A stretch of 64,000 nucleotides of DNA from Minisyncoccia bacterium (GCA_041750655.1 JBGSYZ010000011.1:65794-129793); one strand, 5' to 3'; positions 2,551 through 57,622 are shown, counted from the first letter of the stretch. The notes: a model not told the origin generated them from the sequence alone. Numbers and translations are program-made.

Positions 2551-4206
2551 CTAATACATACCTCCCATTCCCCCTCCCATACCAGACATATCTGGCATAC
2601 CCGGCTTATCGTCCTCTGGAGCATCGGCAATCGCACACTCACTTGTGAGCAAAATAGCGGCCGCTGAGACAGCGTGCTGGACACCAGCTCTCTCAACTTT
2701 CACCGGGTCGATGATTCCGGCCTTAATCATGTCATCAATCATCTCGCCTTTGAAAGCATCATACCCAGCGTTGCCACCAGCTGTTCGAACCTTCTCAACA
2801 ATCACTGCCCCATCGTGCTTACCGGTATTGTCGGCAATCTGTCGCAGTGGCATTTCGAGTGCCTTAAGTACAATGTTGTAGCCCACCAATTCTTCTTTGC
2901 TTAAATCTTTTTTATTGAGTACACCCTTTTCTACCACCGCGGCTGCGCGAGCGAGCGAAGTTCCACCACCCGGCACAATCCCTTCTTCTATCGCAGCCTT
3001 AGTAGCGTTGACAGCATCTTCAATCTTGAGCTTGAGATACTTCATTTCAGTTTCAGTCGCTGCTCCTACTTTTATCACTGCCACACCGCCAGAGAGCTTC
3101 GCGATTCGTTCTTCCATTTTTTCCTTATCGAACTTTGAACTCGCTTGATCAATTTGGATGCGCAAAGCCTTAACTCGATCGTCAATTTCAGACTTGGTTC
3201 CGGCACCACCAACTATAACAGTGTCTTCTTTGGTAGAAACGACTCGGTCGGCTTTACCAAGCTGGCTTAGCTCAGTATCTTCGAGCTTGAGACCAACCTC
3301 TTCTGTAATAACAGTCCCGCCAGTCAAAATAGCAATATCCTGGAGCACATCTTTCTTGCGGTCACCATATCCCGGAGCCTTAACAGCCAATACCGAAAAC
3401 CCGCCTTTAAGTTTATTAACCACAAAGGTCGCTAGAGCTTCTCCTTCCACATCGTCAGCAATAATCACTAACTCTTTCTTTCCGCTTTGAGCAACCTTTT
3501 CCAGTAATGGCAATATTTCTTGCACGCTAGAAATTTTCTTATCAGTAATAAGAATCTGAGCGTCTTTGTATTCTGATTCCATCCGTTCTGGATTAGTCAC
3601 CATGTATGGTGAGACATACCCACGATCGAACTGCATACCCTCAGTGAATTCAGTTTCAATACCAAAACTCTGACTTTCTTCTACTGTCACCACGCCATCC
3701 TTCCCTACCTTGTCGATAGTTTCGGCAATTTTAGCGCCAATGTCAGCACTTTCGGCTGAAATAGTGGCCACTTGCTTAATCTCTTCAATTGAATTGATTT
3801 GCGTCGCCATCGCTTTAAGAGCCTCTACCACATCATTAGAAGCGTGCTCCATACCAGTGCGCACTGCCATTGAATTGAGTCCCATGGTGGTTTGCTTCAG
3901 CCCTTCAGTCACTAATGACTGCATAAGGACGGTCGCGGTGGTAGTTCCGTCTCCAGCCAGCTCATTAGTTTTGTTGGCTACTTCCTTAACCATCTCAGCC
4001 CCCATGTTCTCAAACTTATCTTTGAGCGTGATTTCCTTGGCGATAGAAACACCGTCGTTGGTGATCATCGGACCACCATAACCTTTATCAATAATTACAT
4101 TGCGTCCGCGGGGACCTAAGGTTACCTTTACCGCGTTGGCTACTGTATCTACTCCTTTCTTCAGTTTTTTCTTTACGTCTTCGTCAAAAATTACTTCCTT
4201 TGCCAT
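2551..4206 (-). CDS. groEL: chaperonin GroEL (60-kDa chaperonin)
   Basis: 551 aa with full-length GroEL signature (AKEVIFDEDV..., GDGTTTATVL, C-terminal GGM repeat MGGGMGGMY). GroES lies immediately upstream on the same strand. Confidence 0.97.
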   Translation of the reverse strand: MAKEVIFDEDVKKKLKKGVDTVANAVKVTLGPRGRNVIIDKGYGGPMITNDGVSIAKEITLKDKFENMGAEMVKEVANKTNELAGDGTTTATVLMQSLVTEGLKQTTMGLNSMAVRTGMEHASNDVVEALKAMATQINSIEEIKQVATISAESADIGAKIAETIDKVGKDGVVTVEESQSFGIETEFTEGMQFDRGYVSPYMVTNPERMESEYKDAQILITDKKISSVQEILPLLEKVAQSGKKELVIIADDVEGEALATFVVNKLKGGFSVLAVKAPGYGDRKKDVLQDIAILTGGTVITEEVGLKLEDTELSQLGKADRVVSTKEDTVIVGGAGTKSEIDDRVKALRIQIDQASSKFDKEKMEERIAKLSGGVAVIKVGAATETEMKYLKLKIEDAVNATKAAIEEGIVPGGGTSLARAAAVVEKGVLNKKDLSKEELVGYNIVLKALEMPLRQIADNTGKHDGAVIVEKVRTAGGNAGYDAFKGEMIDDMIKAGIIDPVKVERAGVQHAVSAAAILLTSECAIADAPEDDKPGMPDMSGMGGGMGGMY

Positions 4207-4294: not shown

Positions 4295-4603
4295 CTAACT
4301 GATAATACCCAGAATGTCCGATTCAGCGATTATCCAATACTCTTCTTTTTCAACATTCATCTTTTCACTCCAACTTTTGAAAATTACGCGGTCACCAACT
4401 TTTACCTCCATATCCATTCGTTTACCATCATCATCCCGCGCGCCCGGACCAGTCGCTACGACAACTCCTTGGTCGCTGCGCTCTTTGGCTGAAGCTGAAT
4501 CAGGGATAATAATTCCGGAAGCTGACTTACTGCCAGCCTCTTCATCAGTAAGAGGACGAATGACAACTCGATCTCCTAATGGTTTGATTGTTACTTCTGA
4601 CAT
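4295..4603 (-). CDS. groES: co-chaperonin GroES
   Basis: 102 aa with the typical IKPLGDRVVIRP ... mobile loop ... VGDRVIF pattern. It sits directly upstream of groEL. Confidence 0.93.
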   Translation of the reverse strand: MSEVTIKPLGDRVVIRPLTDEEAGSKSASGIIIPDSASAKERSDQGVVVATGPGARDDDGKRMDMEVKVGDRVIFKSWSEKMNVEKEEYWIIAESDILGIIS

Positions 4604-4745
4604 AGGTCTTTATCGTATTAAATTACTTGGTTTTACAACCCTTTTAACTTTCCAAACAAAAGAAGCATTACACCTCCTTCGTGCGAGTGACATTATATGT
4701 CAATGCGGTATAGTGTCAAAAGAATCATGTTTCCAGGAGGAGAAA

Positions 4746-34503: not shown

Positions 34504-34574
34504 TGCCGGATCGTCTAATGGTAGGACACATGGTTTTGGTCCATGGTATCTAGGTTCGAGCCCTAGTCCGGCAG
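34504..34574 (+). tRNA. tRNA-Gln (anticodon UUG)
   Basis: Cloverleaf folded by hand: acceptor TGCCGGA/TCCGGCA with U1:A72, anticodon stem CATGG/CCATG, loop TTTTGGT, T-arm CTAGG-TTCGAGC-CCTAG, discriminator G. CCA is not encoded. Confidence 0.8.
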
Positions 34575-34722
34575 CACAAACAAGGAGCAAAATGAGTAGC
34601 ATTTTGTGACTATGTTTTGCTAGCCTGACTAGGGCTCGAAAAGCTTTTGAGATAGATTTGACTGGAAGGAAAATATATCCAAAAGGTATACTGTCCATGT
34701 AATGGAAGAGCCCTCGAAAAGG
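34575..34722 (+). repeat. tRNA-Gln-linked repeat unit 1 (about 150 nt; inverted copy of the tRNA T-arm/acceptor 3' segment at its 5' side; degenerate att-like copy at its 3' end)
   Basis: The unit shares long identical stretches with unit 2 at 35277-35437. GACTAGGGCTCGAA is the reverse complement of the tRNA segment TTCGAGCCCTAGTC. Confidence 0.6.
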
Positions 34723-34868
34723 TTCGTCAGATATTTCTGAAAGAAATACCGACAACCTGTACTGCTCGTGTAACGAGAGAGGTCCCCAGTACGGCAACAA
34801 TATTGACTTTTATAAAAAAGTATTTTAAAGTACAGAAAGATTTTTAGATTTTTTCTTCTTGAGAGGAC

Positions 34869-35186
34869 ATGGTCATGACAGACAATAATGAAGTTGTGAA
34901 AGAGAAGCTTTTGCGACTTGCTCAGCAACGTGCCAGAAACTCAGTCATCGCATTCAGGCGCCAGAGTGATTCAGGTATTCACGAAGGGAGGGTTCGTGCC
35001 GACAAAGTCTGGGGTGGACAACAACAAGAACTTGCAGCAACACTGCCCGAGGACGACCCACTTCGCGAGGTGGTTGAGTTTATCGGGAAACTCGATGTGA
35101 TTAGCCCGCCGCAACATCTCGTCTCCAAGATTCCCCAGAAATCAGGAGTAACACTAGGTGATGTGTGGCCTGATTCTGAAGATTGA
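34869..35186 (+). CDS. hypothetical protein (105 aa), cargo ORF between repeat units, visibly higher GC than flanks
   Basis: Clean ORF followed by the strong terminator at 35203-35246. No family recognised. Confidence 0.45.
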   Translation: MVMTDNNEVVKEKLLRLAQQRARNSVIAFRRQSDSGIHEGRVRADKVWGGQQQELAATLPEDDPLREVVEFIGKLDVISPPQHLVSKIPQKSGVTLGDVWPDSED

Positions 35187-35202
35187 GTGAACTCTGAACT
35201 CA

Positions 35203-35246
35203 AGAGCCGTTTAGTACCGAAAGGGGAAAACGGCTCTTTCATTTTA
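35203..35246 (+). terminator. Rho-independent terminator (GAGCCGTTT...AAACGGCTC + T-run)
   Basis: Read directly. Confidence 0.65.
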
Positions 35247-35276
35247 TATATAAGTTCCAACCTCGTCCCAGACGGC

Positions 35277-35437
35277 CAGCACAAACAAGGAGCAAAATGA
35301 GTAGCATTTTGTGACTATGTTTTGCTAGCCTGACTAGGGCTCGAAAAGCTTTTGTGACAGATTCGACCAGAGAGAGAATATGTCCAAAAGGTATACTGGT
35401 CATGTAATGACCGAGACCCCTAGTCCGGTCCGGCAGC
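35277..35437 (+). repeat. tRNA-Gln-linked repeat unit 2, ending in direct repeat of tRNA 3' end (GAGACCCCTAGTCCGGTCCGGCAGC)
   Basis: Near-identical to unit 1 over CAGCACAAACAAGGAGCAAAATGAGTAGCATTTTGTGACTATGTTTTGCTAGCCTGACTAGGGCTCGAAAAGCTTTTG. Confidence 0.65.
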
Positions 35438-35539
35438 CAATTAATATTAACTTTATTTTTCAACGCTGGTTCGGTTCGAGTACTTAGTTAAAACAGAAAA
35501 CCCACCGACGGCGGGAATTCCGTGGCGGGTATGTGTGCC

Positions 35540-50995: not shown

Positions 50996-51077
50996 GCCGC
51001 GGTGGCGGAATTGGTAGACGCGTACGACTCAAAATCGTATCTCGCAAGGGGTGAGGGTTCGATTCCCTCCCGCGGCA
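50996..51077 (+). tRNA. tRNA-Leu (anticodon CAA), type II with long variable arm
   Basis: Folded by hand: acceptor GCCGCGG/CCGCGGC, anticodon stem TACGA/TCGTA, loop CTCAAAA, variable arm TCTCGCAAGGGGTGAG, T-arm GAGGG-TTCGATT-CCCTC, discriminator A. Confidence 0.8.
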
Positions 51078-51128
51078 CTATGGGTGGAAATGATATACCG
51101 TTCGACAGTCTCCCAGACTGTCTCACCA

Positions 51129-51179
51129 ACTCAAAATCGTATGCTTCACGGCATGAGGGTTCGACCCCCTCCCGCGGCA
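51129..51179 (+). repeat. duplicated 3' portion of tRNA-Leu (anticodon-loop 3' side through acceptor 3' end), diverged in variable arm and T-loop
   Basis: ACTCAAAATCGTA...GAGGGTTCGACCCCCTCCCGCGGCA parallels tRNA positions 34-76. No matching 5' half lies upstream. Confidence 0.5.
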
Positions 51180-51223
51180 CAAATGGATTGGAGAAAAGTA
51201 TTAATTGAAAGTGATGTCTTATA

Positions 51224-52923: not shown

Positions 52924-53027
52924 TTTAAAGCGGTTTTTTAAGTAGTATGTTGAGCACATAAATAAACCGTGTTTAGTAAGTACATACGGAGATTTGTGCG
53001 TTAAAGAATTTAATTTAAGTTAGAGTG

Positions 53028-53195
53028 TGTACTGCACTCAACTTAAACAATGTGACGGCAAGAGGAGACAAGCGAAAGTTGGGGTAAGTTTTTCACTCAA
53101 CTTAAATTGCGTCCCAGACATTGTCTGCAAGAGGATGTGAGTAAGAGTTGGCGTGCGGATTGCACTCAACTTAAATCGCGCCCCGCGCAATTTAA
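53028..53195 (+). repeat. three direct copies of CACTCAACTTAAA at about 63-68-nt spacing, each followed by a local hairpin, immediately upstream of tRNA-Trp; preceded by an inverted partial copy (AATTTAAGTTAGAGTG)
   Basis: Read directly. Units 1 and 2 also share GCAAGAGGA and end in AGTTGG. Confidence 0.55.
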
Positions 53196-53266
53196 GGGCC
53201 TATAGTTTAGTGGTAGAATGCTGGTCTCCAAAACCAGCGGCCGTGGTTCGAGTCCACGTGGGCCCG
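53196..53266 (+). tRNA. tRNA-Trp (anticodon CCA)
   Basis: Acceptor GGGCCTA/TGGGCCC (one G-U), anticodon stem CTGGT/ACCAG, loop CTCCAAA, T-arm CGTGG-TTCGAGT-CCACG, discriminator G. CCA is not encoded. Confidence 0.85.
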
Positions 53267-53465
53267 CAGCAGCAAAAGAAAATGACCGAAACAGATGTTT
53301 CGGTCATTTTCTTTTAGCAAGCCAACTGCTTGGCTTGCGGCTGCCGCGGGAGGCGGAGCGCTGTGAGAAATTCATTTCTAGAATTTCGAACCGCGAGCCG
53401 GGGTCGAAGGTACTTAGTAGAATCAGAGCAAAGCGAATGATTATACTTAGTAACCTGTGACCGCC
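53267..53465 (+). repeat. tRNA-trailer structured repeat, copy A (terminator hairpin + conserved hairpin AGCAAGCCAA-CTGC-TTGGCTTGC + segment complementary to tRNA-Trp 3' end + about 100-nt conserved tail)
   Basis: Aligned by eye to copies B and C. GGCTGCCGCGGG is complementary to the tRNA-Trp 3' end CCCGCAGCAGC with one mismatch. Confidence 0.65.
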
Positions 53466-53528
53466 ATTGAAAACATCCAGCATACACTGGGTATTTTTTA
53501 CCCCACATATCAGTTCAGAACTTTAGTA

Positions 53529-53556
53529 TTGACAAAATATTATTTTAGTGTATTAT
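53529..53556 (+). promoter_or_regulatory. sigma-70-type promoter TTGACA-16nt-TATTAT driving the small high-GC ORF
   Basis: Read directly. A GGAGCA RBS lies 8 nt before the ATG at 53592. Confidence 0.6.
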
Positions 53557-53591
53557 GTGTTTCAGGTAATACAACGGTAGGAGCACCGACA

Positions 53592-53840
53592 ATGGAAGAT
53601 ACCGACCTCACCATACAGCAGATGGATCGCGGACCCTTCGAGGGCAAGTGGTTCTGTCACCGCAACGAAGGCATGGAGTACCTCCATTCCGACGGCTCGT
53701 GGCAGATGATGGCTGGCAAAACGGCCTACTTCGACTCCGAAGAGGACATCGAGGCCCTGCTCGACCGGCTGGACGAGGACGCCGGACAGGCCTACCTCGA
53801 CTTCCAGGAAGAACAGGTAGGTCGCACGGGCTATCCGTGA
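53592..53840 (+). CDS. hypothetical acidic small protein (82 aa) of atypically high GC; MEDTDLTIQQMDRGPFEGKWFCHRNEGMEYLHSDGSWQMMAGKTAYFDSEEDIEALLDRLDEDAGQAYLDFQEEQVGRTGYP
   Basis: I chose the internal start because it has a consensus promoter and an SD. The GC content is visibly far above the flanks (about 60% by eye, not computed). The overlapping antisense and out-of-frame ORFs here are artefacts of the high GC. Confidence 0.5.
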   Translation: MEDTDLTIQQMDRGPFEGKWFCHRNEGMEYLHSDGSWQMMAGKTAYFDSEEDIEALLDRLDEDAGQAYLDFQEEQVGRTGYP

Positions 53841-53993
53841 TTCGACCAATCGGCTCCCAACAAGCCGTCCACCACTCTTTGAAAGAGTCGGTTGGGCGGC
53901 TCTTTTGTTTTTATGTCACAAACTCCCGCAACACCTGAATACTCGACTTGATACACTCCTTCTCCCTATACAGTTCTGAAAGCCACATTTCTT

Positions 53994-54183
53994 GCCCGCC
54001 GAGGTACAAAAGAAAAAACTGATGCTTAAGCATCAGTCTTTTCTTTTGTAGCAAGCAAACTGCTTTGCTTGCGTGCCTCGGCGGGAGACGGAGACATGTT
54101 TCTTCTCCTTTCAAGATAAGAAATAGTCGAGTCCGGGGAGGAAGTTCTTATGAGCGTAAGCGAATTAGAAACTTGACCCCGCC
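53994..54183 (+). repeat. structured repeat, copy B (no tRNA upstream; the long-range stem pairs GCCCGCCGAGGTAC with GTGCCTCGGCGGG)
   Basis: Same architecture as copies A and C. Hairpin 1 is AACTGATGCTTAAGCATCAGT. The conserved hairpin is GTAGCAAGCAAA-CTGC-TTTGCTTGC. Confidence 0.6.
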
Positions 54184-54209: not shown

Positions 54210-55298
54210 TTACCAAGCTACGTGAAGGTGAGTACCGCTACCAGCATTGTGTATCAAAGCTTCTCTTGCTCCGTTAGACTTGGCCCACTGCTGAGCAGCT
54301 TGCATTTGTGCTTGTGTCCCCACAAAATCTGCCGCTCGGCCAGTTAAATGGTATGAGGTTGAAACCCCGCCAGCATTGGCATTTTGGGTTGCTGTCCGAT
54401 ATCCGCTAGTAACAGTTAAACCAAAATTATTTGCAATATATTGCACATTACTTACAATACCACTATCAAATTGTCTGCCACTATAACTAGTTAGTGAACC
54501 ACTAGGACTAACTGTAGAAGTAAATCCACTATTAAATACACACGAACCAAATGCGTCAAAAGTATAGCCGGGTGGGCAACTACCCCCGGGTGACTGCAGT
54601 ATCGGCCCAGAAGCAACCACACACGAACCAAATGCGTCCATGGTATACCATTGTGGACACTGGCCTCCTGCTGAAGGTAACACTACCGTTTGAATACACG
54701 TGCCAAATGAATCCATAGCATACCCAAGTGGACAATGACCTCCTGGTGAAGGTAAAACTGACTGCTGCTGGTTGGTTGGGTCAAACGGTTGAACAGCAAT
54801 TACCATTTGCCACTCAGATGATCCAGGCAAAACAGCTGTTCCGTCATTTAATTGAACCTGACTTGAACAAGTAATTTGATTCATTTGATTCCACGGCATT
54901 GGGGAGTTGGTACCAAATTGCACTTCACCGTTTGGCAACAAAGACTTAAGCATCACGTCAATGACAAGCCACGCGGTGAGAATAATGATGAGACCAATCA
55001 GCACGTTGGTCATTACCCCTTTCCCTTTTTTAACTTGTGCGGCATTTCCAGCTGAACTAAGCATAAGCCACCCAGCATATATAAAAATAATTACTGAAAT
55101 TCCGACAGCCAAAACAATGATTATATCAGTGACGTTGTTAGCTAGTTGAACAATCTGACAGGTACCACAATCATCACCCGAACAAGGAACCAGAGGATTC
55201 GTCTGGGCACCAGTACTAAACGGTACAAATAAAACAAAAAGAAAAAAGAAAAAAGAAAATGAGATGATTTTATTTGCTGCAGAAAGTGAACAATACAT
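54210..55298 (-). CDS. secreted peptidoglycan hydrolase: N-terminal Cys-rich two-helix (T4SS/conjugative-pilin-like) domain, three GGxCPxGYxxDxFGxC repeats, C-terminal peptidase M15 (zinc D-Ala-D-Ala carboxypeptidase/endopeptidase) domain
   Basis: M15 motifs SYHLTGRAADF (SxHxxGxAxD) and THLHVAW (HxH). The N-terminal PLVPCSGDDCGTCQIV plus two hydrophobic helices are shared with the adjacent paralog. Confidence 0.6.
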   Translation of the reverse strand: MYCSLSAANKIISFSFFFFLFVLFVPFSTGAQTNPLVPCSGDDCGTCQIVQLANNVTDIIIVLAVGISVIIFIYAGWLMLSSAGNAAQVKKGKGVMTNVLIGLIIILTAWLVIDVMLKSLLPNGEVQFGTNSPMPWNQMNQITCSSQVQLNDGTAVLPGSSEWQMVIAVQPFDPTNQQQSVLPSPGGHCPLGYAMDSFGTCIQTVVLPSAGGQCPQWYTMDAFGSCVVASGPILQSPGGSCPPGYTFDAFGSCVFNSGFTSTVSPSGSLTSYSGRQFDSGIVSNVQYIANNFGLTVTSGYRTATQNANAGGVSTSYHLTGRAADFVGTQAQMQAAQQWAKSNGAREALIHNAGSGTHLHVAW

Positions 55299-55307
55299 AG
55301 GAATTCA

Positions 55308-56366
55308 TTATGGCATCGGAGCTTGGCCCGCCATACCTAGAATGTTGTTTACATAGTTTCTAGTTTCAGCATAGCCGGAGTTGGCTGTACACTGCCACCA
55401 TGTTTGTCCGGGACAGGTCACACTTTGATTGAGTGCCCTTGGGCCACCATTGTAATACGCAAGAGCATTGGCCACATTACCACTACTGGCTTGTAGTCCT
55501 TGTCCAAAGTATGTCACTCCTAGCTGCATGTTTATTTGTGGGTGCGAAGTGAGATATGACTGTATTTGTGAATTGCTCATACCAGATAAATCACAAAGAC
55601 CAGTTTGTGAGCATAGTTGACTTGCAGTGCCTGGCATTATTTGAAAGATTCCAGCTGCTCCCGCGGGACTAATCGCATTAGGATTGTACCCAGACTCTTG
55701 GTACATTTGCGCTTGCAAAATCCTACAGTACGCGCCCAGACCTTGTGAGGAAGCAATGCTACACAACTGTGTCGCATACGGATCATTTGGGTTATAAGCT
55801 ACGCCGGCGGCTGTTGCCAATTGTTGCGGTGTCATTTGTGTCGCATTTAAACCAGTCGCTGTCACTCGGGGCCAGTTACTCGACCCGGGCAGATGTGCAA
55901 TACCGTCACTTAGTGGAACTTGGTTAGAACACGACACCTGATTCCATGGTAACCACTGGCCAGCAGACATCTGGACTTGACCACTATTTTTTAGAAGTGC
56001 TTTCATGCCTGTATCAATAATAAGCCAGGCCACTAACATTAAAATAAGACCGATTAAAACATTCTTAAGCATGTTCTTGGCTCGAGTGTATTCCGATGGG
56101 TTGCCACCAGAGATAAGAAGATTGAATCCTCCCCAGGCTGCGAGCAGGACTACCCCCACAATCATTATCATAATGATAAATCGCAATACCCGGTTGCCGA
56201 GAACCACAATTTGGCACGTACCGCAGTCAGTACCCGAGCAAGGCACCAGGCCGCCTGTATCTCCCACTAGTGTGTTACCAGGAATACTTTGAGCCAAGAC
56301 AAACATTGGCAGTGCCAAAGTTAAAAAACCAAGAAAATATACGAGGCCGCGCTTCATAAAATGCAT
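55308..56366 (-). CDS. secreted peptidoglycan hydrolase: N-terminal Cys-rich two-helix (pilin-like) domain fused to lytic transglycosylase (SLT/GH23) domain
   Basis: SLT motif AQMYQESGYNPNAISPAGAAGIFQIMPGTA (ES...GxxQxM). The N-terminal GGLVPCSGTDCGTCQIV plus two TM helices are paralogous to the upstream gene. Confidence 0.65.
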   Translation of the reverse strand: MHFMKRGLVYFLGFLTLALPMFVLAQSIPGNTLVGDTGGLVPCSGTDCGTCQIVVLGNRVLRFIIMIMIVGVVLLAAWGGFNLLISGGNPSEYTRAKNMLKNVLIGLILMLVAWLIIDTGMKALLKNSGQVQMSAGQWLPWNQVSCSNQVPLSDGIAHLPGSSNWPRVTATGLNATQMTPQQLATAAGVAYNPNDPYATQLCSIASSQGLGAYCRILQAQMYQESGYNPNAISPAGAAGIFQIMPGTASQLCSQTGLCDLSGMSNSQIQSYLTSHPQINMQLGVTYFGQGLQASSGNVANALAYYNGGPRALNQSVTCPGQTWWQCTANSGYAETRNYVNNILGMAGQAPMP

Positions 56367-56724: not shown

Positions 56725-56919
56725 AGGTATAAGAAAAATCACTGGAATTCATTCCAGTGATTTTCTTATAGCAAGCAAACTGCTTTGCTTGCGTACCTTG
56801 GTGCGAGGCGGAAGTATGTTTTTCATTCATTCCTAGAATGAAAAACAGCTGAGCCGGGGTCGAGAGTACTTAGCAAAATAAATGCAAAGCATTTATTTTG
56901 CTTAGTAACTCGTGACCAC
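56725..56919 (+). repeat. tRNA-trailer structured repeat, copy C (terminator hairpin ATCACTGGAA-TTCA-TTCCAGTGAT + conserved hairpin AGCAAGCAAA-CTGC-TTTGCTTGC + GTACCTTGGTGCG complementary to the tRNA-Tyr 3' end + conserved tail)
   Basis: Aligned by eye to copies A and B. The tail shares GAGCCGGGGTCGA(A/G)GGTACTTAG and CTTAGTAAC(C/T)(T/C)GTGACC with copy A. Confidence 0.65.
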
Positions 56920-56983
56920 ATAAACCTTTATAATATACTATAAATAGTGTATTATTTTGTACGAAACAGTTTGGAGAAAATCG

Positions 56984-57121
56984 ATGATGTCTGAACGCGA
57001 ATATCAACGTCGCCTTGCGCCTCTTCTCGAAGAGTTGCAGAGGGTAAAGACCCAGAAGCAGAAGGACGAGATCGAGCAAAAGATGCAAGCCCTCGACCGG
57101 CAAGCGAACGGCAGCAAGTAG
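56984..57121 (+). CDS. hypothetical coiled-coil small protein (45 aa): MMSEREYQRRLAPLLEELQRVKTQKQKDEIEQKMQALDRQANGSK
   Basis: It directly follows repeat copy C. TATAAT/TATTAT -10-like elements and a GGAGAAAA RBS lie upstream. GC is elevated relative to the flanks. A hairpin plus T-run terminator lies downstream. It shares the AGTGTATTAT promoter-region motif with the ORF at 53592. Confidence 0.4.
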   Translation: MMSEREYQRRLAPLLEELQRVKTQKQKDEIEQKMQALDRQANGSK

Positions 57122-57622
57122 AGCGCAACCGCCGACCCAAGAAAGCCCCTGGCTCTCTCACGGGTCAGGCGGTTTTCTTTTACACTAATCCCACCTTCTC
57201 ACACACGTATCTAGGTAAGAAACAATACTCACTTTCTATAATTGCAGTTCTAACTTCACGCATTCCTGCGCACGCGTATAAAAATGAGCATCCTTTGGAT
57301 GCCATTTTTATTGCGTGTGCCGGGAGTACGAGACTAATGTCTCGTACGGCTGGATTCGAAGCTCCGGACGATGTTTTGAGAGCTTCATAGCTAGCAAAAC
57401 GAGGAGGAGCCGTCCAAGAAACCGAGCCTAGTTTATGAACGTAGTGAAATAAAATAGCCGGTATTCGGGGACGAAGGAAGCCGGCACACAAATTATATAC
57501 TCCCATTTTGGAGAATTTAAAATTGGCTTTAATTACGTATTGTATGAGTTAACGTCATTCTCAACTTCTTGCCAATTGCTTAAGACTATGCCAATAATAG
57601 CCGCAGAGAAGGGAGAACGAAA

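Follow-up and report, generated by a model that had tools for sequence, protein, structure and literature searches.

An acidic, high-GC orphan gene as probable cassette cargo at a tRNA-Trp 3' end in a Kaiserbacteria-like genome

How does a gene of 82 codons, much richer in G and C than its surroundings and equipped with a strong-looking promoter, come to lie a short way downstream of a tRNA gene and between two copies of a noncoding repeat? The gene, here ORF82 (ORF, open reading frame), is in a 64,000-nt stretch of DNA from a Minisyncoccia bacterium (GCA_041750655.1 JBGSYZ010000011.1:65794-129793), the whole of which we call the window. A first-pass annotation considered it likely to be foreign, and perhaps captured by an epibiotic cell from a high-GC actinobacterial host. 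The answer offered here keeps the foreignness and parts with the host: ORF82 is probably, at about 0.7, the single cargo of a self-contained cassette of ~530 bp inserted site-specifically at the 3' end of tRNA-Trp, in a hypervariable array of a Kaiserbacteria-like member of the Candidate Phyla Radiation (CPR).

The limits of the unit are the place to begin (coordinates are in Table 1). On comparison of loci, similarity begins and ends exactly after GCCCGC, which is the acceptor-stem 3' end of tRNA-Trp (GGGCCCGC). Inside these limits the conservation across orthologous loci reaches far past ORF82 itself, taking in the 5' hairpin, the TTTACCCCA..TTCAGAACTTT box, the promoter, the Shine-Dalgarno (SD) sequence, the terminator and the 3' module, and the 5' part is conserved in other cassettes as well as in the orthologues. 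The 3' module finishes ..AGTTCTGAAAGCCA..TTTCTTGCCCGC, its last ~28 nt resembling a degenerate tRNA-Trp 3' half, of which better-preserved versions (GACCGAGTCCACGTGGACCC) are found in two orthologous loci, L001 and L002. An inverted repeat of 9-11 nt, AGTTCTGAA/TTCAGAACT, spans the junction between cassettes. A role for the 3' module as a sigma-70 promoter was considered and set aside, the hexamer spacing being unsuitable when inspected by eye. The repeats between which ORF82 had been placed, A and B, do flank it, and a third copy, C, follows tRNA-Tyr.

The expression signals ahead of ORF82 are as first described. The promoter, ~35 nt ahead of the ATG, has 11 of the 12 consensus matches. That alone is not beyond chance, three sites with at least 11/12 being observed in the window against 1.75 +/- 1.3 expected. 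It is kept in the orthologues, and in distant paralogous cassettes it has the form TTGACA-N12-TAGTGTATT(A/G)T. The AGGAG SD and the ATG are likewise conserved, with the SD invariant across all orthologues in a DNA alignment (A1) of the orthologous loci. Another of the three sites, and the sole perfect consensus site in the window, is upstream of groES and groEL.

How would such a unit arrive? The cassette would bring with it an insulating hairpin, a near-consensus promoter, an SD, a terminator and the ~100-nt 3' module, and a recombinase supplied in trans would insert it at the tRNA-Trp 3' end. Since the final GCCCGC copy of the module regenerates the attachment (att) site, further cassettes could then stack behind it.

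Is the arrangement peculiar to one genome? A scan of Joint Genome Institute (JGI) metagenomes for the 3' module, with an exact match demanded at 21 specified bases, found it in 36 loci with one to three copies in each. An upstream tRNA-Trp on the same strand is present in 14 of the module-bearing loci, as in the window and L001, and most of those without it are short contigs that start inside an array. The surrounding frame is conserved, namely ParB(-), tRNA-Leu, MiaA(+), tRNA-Trp, the variable region, pilin-M15(-), pilin-SLT(-) and tRNA-Tyr, with MiaA 45-57% identical across syntenic loci and the module ~90% identical. Between att copies are intervals of 467-1500 nt, mostly 467-1050, in which different single ORFs sit, 59-256 aa long and ranging in GC between 0.29 and 0.60. 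A NYN nuclease on the opposite strand recurs among them, and there are also a GNAT protein, an AAA_33 kinase, an IS30 transposase, membrane and secreted proteins and many without annotation. In L004 a unit with a 60-aa ORF and the same module precedes the ORF82 unit, as tandem cassettes; in L002 the ORF82 unit is followed by a 112-aa unit, a structured element of the kind described below as type i and then one more cassette, and ..TTTCTTGCCCGC closes every unit. Cassettes shared between genomes (ORF82, NYN, a 126-aa ORF) do not keep to one array position; ORF82 itself stands elsewhere in the window and L001 than in L002 and L004. From most syntenic relatives it is missing, its slot being taken by other cargo.

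The divergence of ORF82 is pertinent to when it came. Between the window and L001 the synonymous difference (pS) of MiaA is 0.82, which is saturation, with 56% amino acid identity, and that of ORF82 is 0.52, with 76% identity. When only sites with identical residues are counted, the synonymous difference in ORF82 is 0.50 against 0.80 +/- 0.11 at saturation, as computed under the family's own codon usage (p about 0.004). Judged by these comparisons, ORF82 appears younger than the MiaA gene that flanks its array.

There are observations that weigh against this account, and they are best faced together. Five loci (L015, L016, L027, L031 and L045) have more than 3.8 kb of upstream DNA and no tRNA-Trp in it, and in L015 the context differs, being a serine-recombinase island after rpsI. 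No recombinase was found among the cassette ORFs of the Trp arrays on comparison with Pfam and PHROGs, nor in the window with a crude tyrosine-recombinase motif scan of its ORFs, which is a weak test. No excised circle or empty site was observed, and thus the mobility of the cassettes is deduced from comparative anatomy alone. No homology supports any function of the ORF82 protein. Lastly, its lower pS could in part be due to selection on synonymous sites and not only to a younger age.

The L015 context is among the things that lend weight to the best of the rival explanations, one we still consider unlikely: that the unit is a decayed remnant of a larger integrative element, whether phage, plasmid or integrase-bearing island, and its modules the leftover att sites of successive integrations. 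Islands at tRNA genes typically have partial tRNA repeats and integrations stacked one on another (bioRxiv 10.1101/2020.12.28.424599). Larger inserts, of 2.8-5.5 kb, are present at the same site in L023, L029 and L037. In L015 (7230-9200; also in L035) an insert of 1.85 kb after the rpsI operon, between direct repeats of 56 nt, combines a truncated large serine recombinase (phrog_95, E 5e-15) with a promoter-driven Nudix cassette ending in the 3' module, which means that the module also travels on integrase-bearing islands away from tRNA-Trp. However, most intervals are uniform single-gene units (0.47-0.95 kb) with promoter and terminator intact, and the ~100-nt module has been kept ~90% identical while core proteins have drifted to ~50%. 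Decay would neither keep regular complete units nor shift the same unit from one array position to another, and it is on this that we prefer a cassette to a relic.

One of the larger inserts deserves separate mention. In L023 (893-6445) and L031 (1054-4860) ~5 kb of DNA lies between tRNA-Trp and the 3' module, and is possibly an autonomous relative of the cassettes. Its 395-aa and 359/489-aa proteins have no match in Pfam, PHROGs or PDB; a Rep-like nature of the 395-aa protein was given up for want of support from any of the three, and the likeness of a motif in the insert, H.YSG...RVFYDK, to rolling-circle initiators is equally unsupported.

We now turn to composition, the feature that first drew attention to ORF82. 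That its GC is far above background is borne out: 0.598 against 0.426 for the window (z = 3.5), the top GC peak of the 64 kb, with just 0.12% of 249-nt windows reaching it. GC at third codon positions (GC3) is 0.78 against 0.376 +/- 0.078, a value reached by none of 1206 equal-sized chunks of long ORFs, and its codon adaptation score is the lowest among all of them. At fourfold degenerate sites C makes up 64% in ORF82 against 21% in the genome, and T 6% against 35%.

Could this be the mark of a resident gene, vertically inherited and highly expressed, with its GC3 raised by selection on translation or on the mRNA? The promoter and SD are of consensus grade, the promoter being in the same class as that of groESL, C-ending codons are preferred in NNY boxes, and the raised GC3 is maintained across diverged orthologues (0.65-0.80, with flank GC of 0.40-0.47). 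Nevertheless the proposition is quite improbable. Fourfold C is 0.17-0.21 in GroEL, GroES and ClpB against 0.64 in ORF82, and since those genes are without the C-ending bias, translational selection is an unlikely cause of it. ORF82 uses CAG for all six of its glutamines despite the window's own tRNA-Gln reading CAA, the GC-rich stretch runs on into the 3' untranslated region (GC 0.55), and both the absence of the gene from most syntenic relatives and its apparent youth relative to MiaA count against the proposition as well. GC3 is raised also in the paralogues P0007, P0020 and P0015, and not in P0004, P0005 and P0006. Being raised in orthologues whose synonymous sites have largely turned over, and in several distant paralogues, it is an old and maintained trait of a cassette gene and not the fresh signature of a donor. 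If ORF82 is cassette cargo, its atypical GC and codon usage would come from residence in a horizontally exchanged cassette pool and not from capture from a high-GC host.

The source that the first-pass annotation had in mind was the high-GC actinobacterial host of an epibiont, which here would be a CPR cell, and composition alone, GC 0.60 and GC3 0.78, speaks for such a capture. Actinobacterial genes use both C and G heavily at fourfold sites; in ORF82 fourfold C, 0.64, is far above G, 0.21. The relatives of ORF82 also point elsewhere. A word-indexed scan of 5.8 billion proteins gave three close homologues with 76-80% identity, and an exhaustive HMMER scan of 1.84 billion representative proteins added a handful of relatives of 57-83 aa with 40-60% identity, together with two other proteins in which the domain occurs in tandem, in four copies and in two. 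By profile search the family has only 12 members among the 5.8 billion. Left out of the family are large multi-domain matches (choline-binding repeats, Reg_prop, laminin B and others), whose similarity we attribute to repeats or composition. Every relative with a readable context (nine family members) is on a CPR-like contig with 40-50% GC. The sole match among 185,579 species genomes is in a metagenome-assembled genome (MAG) of Candidatus Kaiserbacteria, of the Parcubacteria group, where the locus is syntenic with the window (AhpC, MiaA, tRNA-Trp, ORF82 and type IV secretion system (T4SS) pilin genes). The phage and plasmid collections yielded no tblastn match to ORF82, and viral contigs neither a relative of it nor a copy of the 3' module. 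GC in Kaiserbacteria MAGs would range from 38% to 59%, as gauged from the NCBI naming convention, and with values up to 58-59% on that basis no high-GC donor need be sought beyond the phylum. The reservoir may be the phylum's own higher-GC members, a simpler one than Actinobacteria. Actinobacterial capture is thus very improbable.

The idea of an epibiont fares no better. GroEL/ES, ClpB, TopA, SerRS, ParB, MiaA and the pilin-peptidase fusions, all encoded in the window, are a set typical of CPR genomes. With CPR-like relatives and Kaiserbacteria as the only genome match, the organism is Parcubacteria/Kaiserbacteria-like, and in the searches made here there was no evidence for a Saccharibacteria-type epibiont or for an actinobacterial host.

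That ORF82 is a real protein-coding gene is established by its orthologues. Among the four orthologues, substitutions in the sense frame number 11-16 at first, 3-13 at second and 23-38 at third codon positions, with dN/dS at 0.05-0.18. The overlapping ORFs remarked on at the outset, 95 aa on the minus strand and 96 aa on the plus strand, are by-products of composition, since the orthologue substitutions fall on the third positions of the 82-aa frame; the same pattern rules out antisense or alternative-frame coding. That ORF82 should not code for protein at all, and have arisen incidentally within a GC-rich structured element of RNA or DNA, is scarcely credible. All four orthologues do leave a codon-aligned antisense frame open, and ORF82 has structured noncoding elements to its left and right; but third-position substitutions dominate, the SD and ATG are conserved, protein relatives extend down to 40% identity and include tandem-repeat versions, and the AlphaFold2 core is confident.

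What might the protein do? It is acidic, as had been noted (pI 4.08, 20 D/E against 6 K/R, net charge about -14). In the family core of ~55 aa the residues G14, C22, Y30, D34, W37, Y46, F47 and I53 do not vary; only some members have the acidic C-terminal tail, which several lack. Modelled by AlphaFold2 with the family alignment (pLDDT 78 overall, ~90 for residues 10-60), it has three short beta strands and then a long C-terminal acidic helix, of low confidence beyond residue 60 (pLDDT 48-61). Pfam, PHROGs, PADLOC and NCBIfam contain no significant match, DUF4279 (E 0.086) and RecX (E 0.095) being weak and dismissed as chance. A sequence-profile search of PDB gave nothing below E 0.9, and Foldseek nothing significant, with E of at least 1 in PDB and a best E of 0.023 in BFVD, to an uncharacterised phage protein. 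The product is predicted to be strongly expressed, small, acidic and cytoplasmic, a compact beta unit plus an acidic helix with no catalytic motif. It would work by binding a partner, an accessory factor in the manner of an inhibitor, adaptor or decoy and no enzyme, though we adopt the notion of a non-enzymatic binding protein in weak form only. The more specific suggestion of an acidic inhibitor or DNA mimic is a possibility on which the present results bear neither way.

The repeats on either side of the cassette have a character of their own. These type i elements are ~150-200 nt long, with three covarying hairpins and a conserved AGRCGGAR...GAGYCRGG core. Nine copies, A, B and C included, fit a common structure of 44 pairs, in which 95% of cells are paired against 35-43% with slid partners, and two-sided changes occur in 26 pairs, compared with 4-12 for slid partners; values like those observed came up in none of 500 shuffles. 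Single sequences fold at z = -5.3 and -9.4. A further helix joins element to tRNA: the last 5-7 nt of the tRNA or module and the first 6-8 nt of the element pair with a segment just before AGRCGGAR, and the variants covary (CCCGC|TCGAGT with GCTCGAGCGGG, CCCGC|CGAGGTAC with GTGCCTCGGCGGG, CCCGC|AGTAGT with GCTACTGCGGG and CGCACCA|AGGTAT with GTACCTTGGTGCG). Repeats A, B and C have no match in Rfam, in which only the tRNAs reach the gathering threshold, the sub-threshold matches being chance ones of hairpin type. Type i is thus a candidate for a new structured RNA or single-strand DNA element.

A second class, type ii, has 16-18 nt complementary to the T arm and acceptor 3' strand of the neighbouring tRNA. 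In the window it is met at tRNA-Gln, and many Trp arrays have it too, those of other genomes with anti-tRNA-Trp segments. From genome to genome its antisense segment follows the variants of the tRNA sequence, and a new copy of the tRNA 3' end closes each element. Both types could be RNAs, with a guide or antisense role, or single-stranded DNA folded so as to offer a duplex att site.

Nor are such arrangements confined to tRNA-Trp. The paralogue P0006 has a copy of the tRNA-Tyr 3' end (..cccggcgcaca) on each side, P0007 comes directly after tRNA-Leu(GAG) with a ..gcgcaca repeat downstream, and P0020 is preceded by a type i 3' end and a tRNA-Tyr remnant. All three have TTGACA-N12-TAGTGTATT(A/G)T promoters. 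With distant members also in cassettes bounded by tRNA-Tyr and tRNA-Leu 3'-end repeats, the label foreign is upheld for ORF82 in the sense of a mobile cassette pool: it is patchy cargo of a tRNA-Trp hotspot, and it is the route by way of a captured host gene that is not supported. In the window itself tRNA-Tyr, tRNA-Gln and tRNA-Leu have an architecture like that of tRNA-Trp. The tail of the tRNA-Tyr mini-cassette (..AGTTCTAACTTCACGCATTCCTGCGCAC) parallels the Trp-type 3' module and differs in ending with the tRNA-Tyr end, and the terminator of its 45-aa ORF also follows the paralogues P0007 and P0020. The duplicate at tRNA-Leu(CAA) resembles an att site, being a partial tRNA repeat, but no cargo gene is evident beside it.

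The neighbours of ORF82 include, on the minus strand, two adjacent genes in which an N-terminal T4SS pilin domain (TrbC/VirB2-like) is fused with a hydrolase of the cell wall. The hydrolase is Peptidase_M15 in one gene and SLT in its neighbour, and three internal Cys-rich repeats of ~25 aa are found in the first. The ORF82 copies of the window and L001 neighbour pilin genes, and distant family genes are immediately upstream of a TrwB/TraG coupling protein (L005 10001-12512) and of a TrbC-like pilin (L046 95-1674). This link with T4SS genes could be functional or a coincidence. We do not rely on it, because the neighbours in Trp arrays follow from the place of the hotspot and such genes are common in CPR genomes.

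Table 1. Positions of features in the window
Feature	Position	Strand	Remarks
groEL	2551-4206		
groES	4295-4603		
groES-groEL promoter	4690-4719	-	perfect 12/12 TTGACA-16-TATAAT
tRNA-Gln locus	34504-35438		~125-nt element with CCTGACTAGGGCTCGAA, antisense to tRNA-Gln T arm and acceptor
105-aa orphan ORF	34869-35186		promoter-driven, with terminator; between two tRNA-Gln elements
tRNA-Gln element, second copy	35280-35409		followed by tRNA-Gln 3' remnant 35410-35438, gaccgagacccctagtccggtccggcagcc
tRNA-Leu(CAA)	50996-51180		range includes the 3' half duplicated 50 nt on (51129-51180), 83% identical
Three tandem repeats	53018-53184		~60-69 nt each (..AGTTGGNGT......GCACTCAACTTAAAT..), between miaA and tRNA-Trp
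tRNA-Trp(CCA)	53196-53267	+	ARAGORN, Rfam; 3' end ...GGGCCCG(C), attachment point of the cassette array
Type i copy A	53268-53470	+	noncoding structured element after tRNA-Trp
Copy A, parts	53274-53350		bidirectional terminator hairpin 53274-53315; P1 53316-53339; segment complementary to tRNA end/junction 53340-53350
Copy A, parts (continued)	53351-53358		AGGCGGAG; then P2; then P3 ending ..GTGACCGC
ORF82 cassette	53471-53999		whole unit
ORF82 cassette, 5' part	53471-53528	+	terminator-like insulating hairpin (53475-53492 and T run), TTTACCCCA..TTCAGAACTTT box
Sigma-70-type promoter	53529-53556	+	TTGACA (53529-53534), 16 nt, TATTAT (53551-53556)
Shine-Dalgarno AGGAG	53578-53582	+	read from sequence; 9 nt 5' of ATG (53592)
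ORF82	53592-53840	+	82-aa acidic protein; rare family without annotation
ORF82 intrinsic terminator	53880-53913	+	11-bp stem, then T run
Cassette 3' module	53908-53999	+	~100 nt; ..AACTC.CGCAACA.CTGAATACT..TGATACACTCC.TCTCCCTATACAGTTCTGAAAGCCACATTTCTTGCCCGC; ends in att core GCCCGC
Type i copy B	54000-54182	+	closing helix pairs CCCGC|CGAGGTAC with GTGCCTCGGCGGG
Two pilin-hydrolase fusion genes	54210-56366	-	DNA repeats 54540-54759 in the first
Type i copy C	56725-56919		follows tRNA-Tyr
tRNA-Tyr mini-cassette	56920-57270		after tRNA-Tyr and element C: promoter (..TAGTGTATTAT), SD, ORF, terminator
45-aa ORF	56984-57121		promoter-driven; GC 0.54, GC3 0.70; terminator 57148-57169

How far may one generalize? 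We can put forward, tentatively and with a good deal of doubt, that the arrays are a previously undescribed gene-capture system of the CPR, integron-like but anchored on tRNA 3' ends (Trp, Tyr, Gln, Leu) and served by a trans-acting enzyme. In it the type i and type ii elements, with their anti-tRNA segments of 11-18 nt, would specify or assist the choice of site, acting either as guide RNAs or as att sites formed by a folded single strand, and ORF82 and its paralogues would be a cassette-specific family, possibly with an anti-defence or decoy role. We found no description of such arrays in CPR in the literature. The CPR, or Patescibacteria, have tiny genomes and little is known of how they exchange genes; at this locus interchangeable, self-expressing cassettes are to be seen at tRNA 3' ends, with an architecture conserved where core proteins are only ~50% identical, which points to a dedicated gene-shuffling mechanism. 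It would account for the small orphan ORFs of odd composition that gather beside the tRNA genes of these genomes, and it is a reminder that in the CPR an island of high GC does not have to be DNA from a host. As an orphan that is predicted to be strongly expressed and recurs as cassette cargo, the ORF82 family is a reasonable candidate for an anti-defence or interaction factor.

How does all this compare with what is known already? For the protein the comparison is with ArdA and Ocr, acidic anti-restriction proteins that mimic DNA, ORF82 being similarly small and very acidic (pI 4.1, about -14), with its own promoter and on mobile DNA. It differs from them in having no sequence or fold similarity, in an acidic tail that several members do without, and in a conserved core that is a beta unit (invariant G, C, Y, D, W, Y, F, I) and not a surface-carboxylate array.

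For the arrays the nearest likeness is to integrons. The units are small, ~0.5-1 kb and mostly of a single gene, each ending in a conserved recombination-type module of ~100 nt; they stack at one chromosomal site, their cargo is diverse, heterogeneous and mostly without known role, and the same cassette is met at different positions. The anchor, however, is a tRNA 3' end and not an attI beside intI, the cassettes carry a strong promoter and a terminator where those of integrons are usually promoterless, and the module ends in a mimic of a tRNA 3' end. No pair of attC cores (RYYYAAC/GTTRRRY, R''/R') was seen on inspection of the inter-cassette sequences by eye, and there is no adjacent intI, MiaA and tRNA-Trp being upstream and pilin genes downstream. 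For lack of attC cores and an adjacent intI, and with promoters of their own, the arrays fall outside the integrons even though they work alike.

Tycheposons of Prochlorococcus, multi-kb elements with their own tyrosine recombinase and replication modules (bioRxiv 10.1101/2020.12.28.424599), share other features with the arrays: integration at tRNA 3' ends, partial-tRNA repeats, older elements pushed outward, cargo, and several tRNA hotspots in a streamlined genome. As expected of tRNA-targeting elements, the array starts at tRNA-Trp and every unit ends ..GCCCGC, with Tyr and Leu repeats flanking P0006 and P0007. The units here are ten times smaller, at 0.5-1 kb, and have one gene and no recombinase of their own, the Trp arrays being without an element-encoded integrase and the truncated serine recombinase of L015 being the sole one seen. 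They are, besides, accompanied by structured noncoding elements with antisense to the tRNA 3' end.

It is these elements that invite the last comparison. Attachment sites that are folded single strands are known, the bottom strand of integron attC being one and the attP of CTX-phi, recombined by XerCD, another. Type i and type ii elements contain the att sequence both as a copy and in complementary form, which allows one strand to fold back on itself as a duplex att copy, and their helices covary. No evidence was met with here for the action of Xer or IntI or for a single-stranded DNA substrate, and the elements could equally be RNAs. If either an RNA-guided or a folded-single-strand mechanism proves to be true, tRNA 3' ends in CPR genomes will have disclosed a new recombination system.

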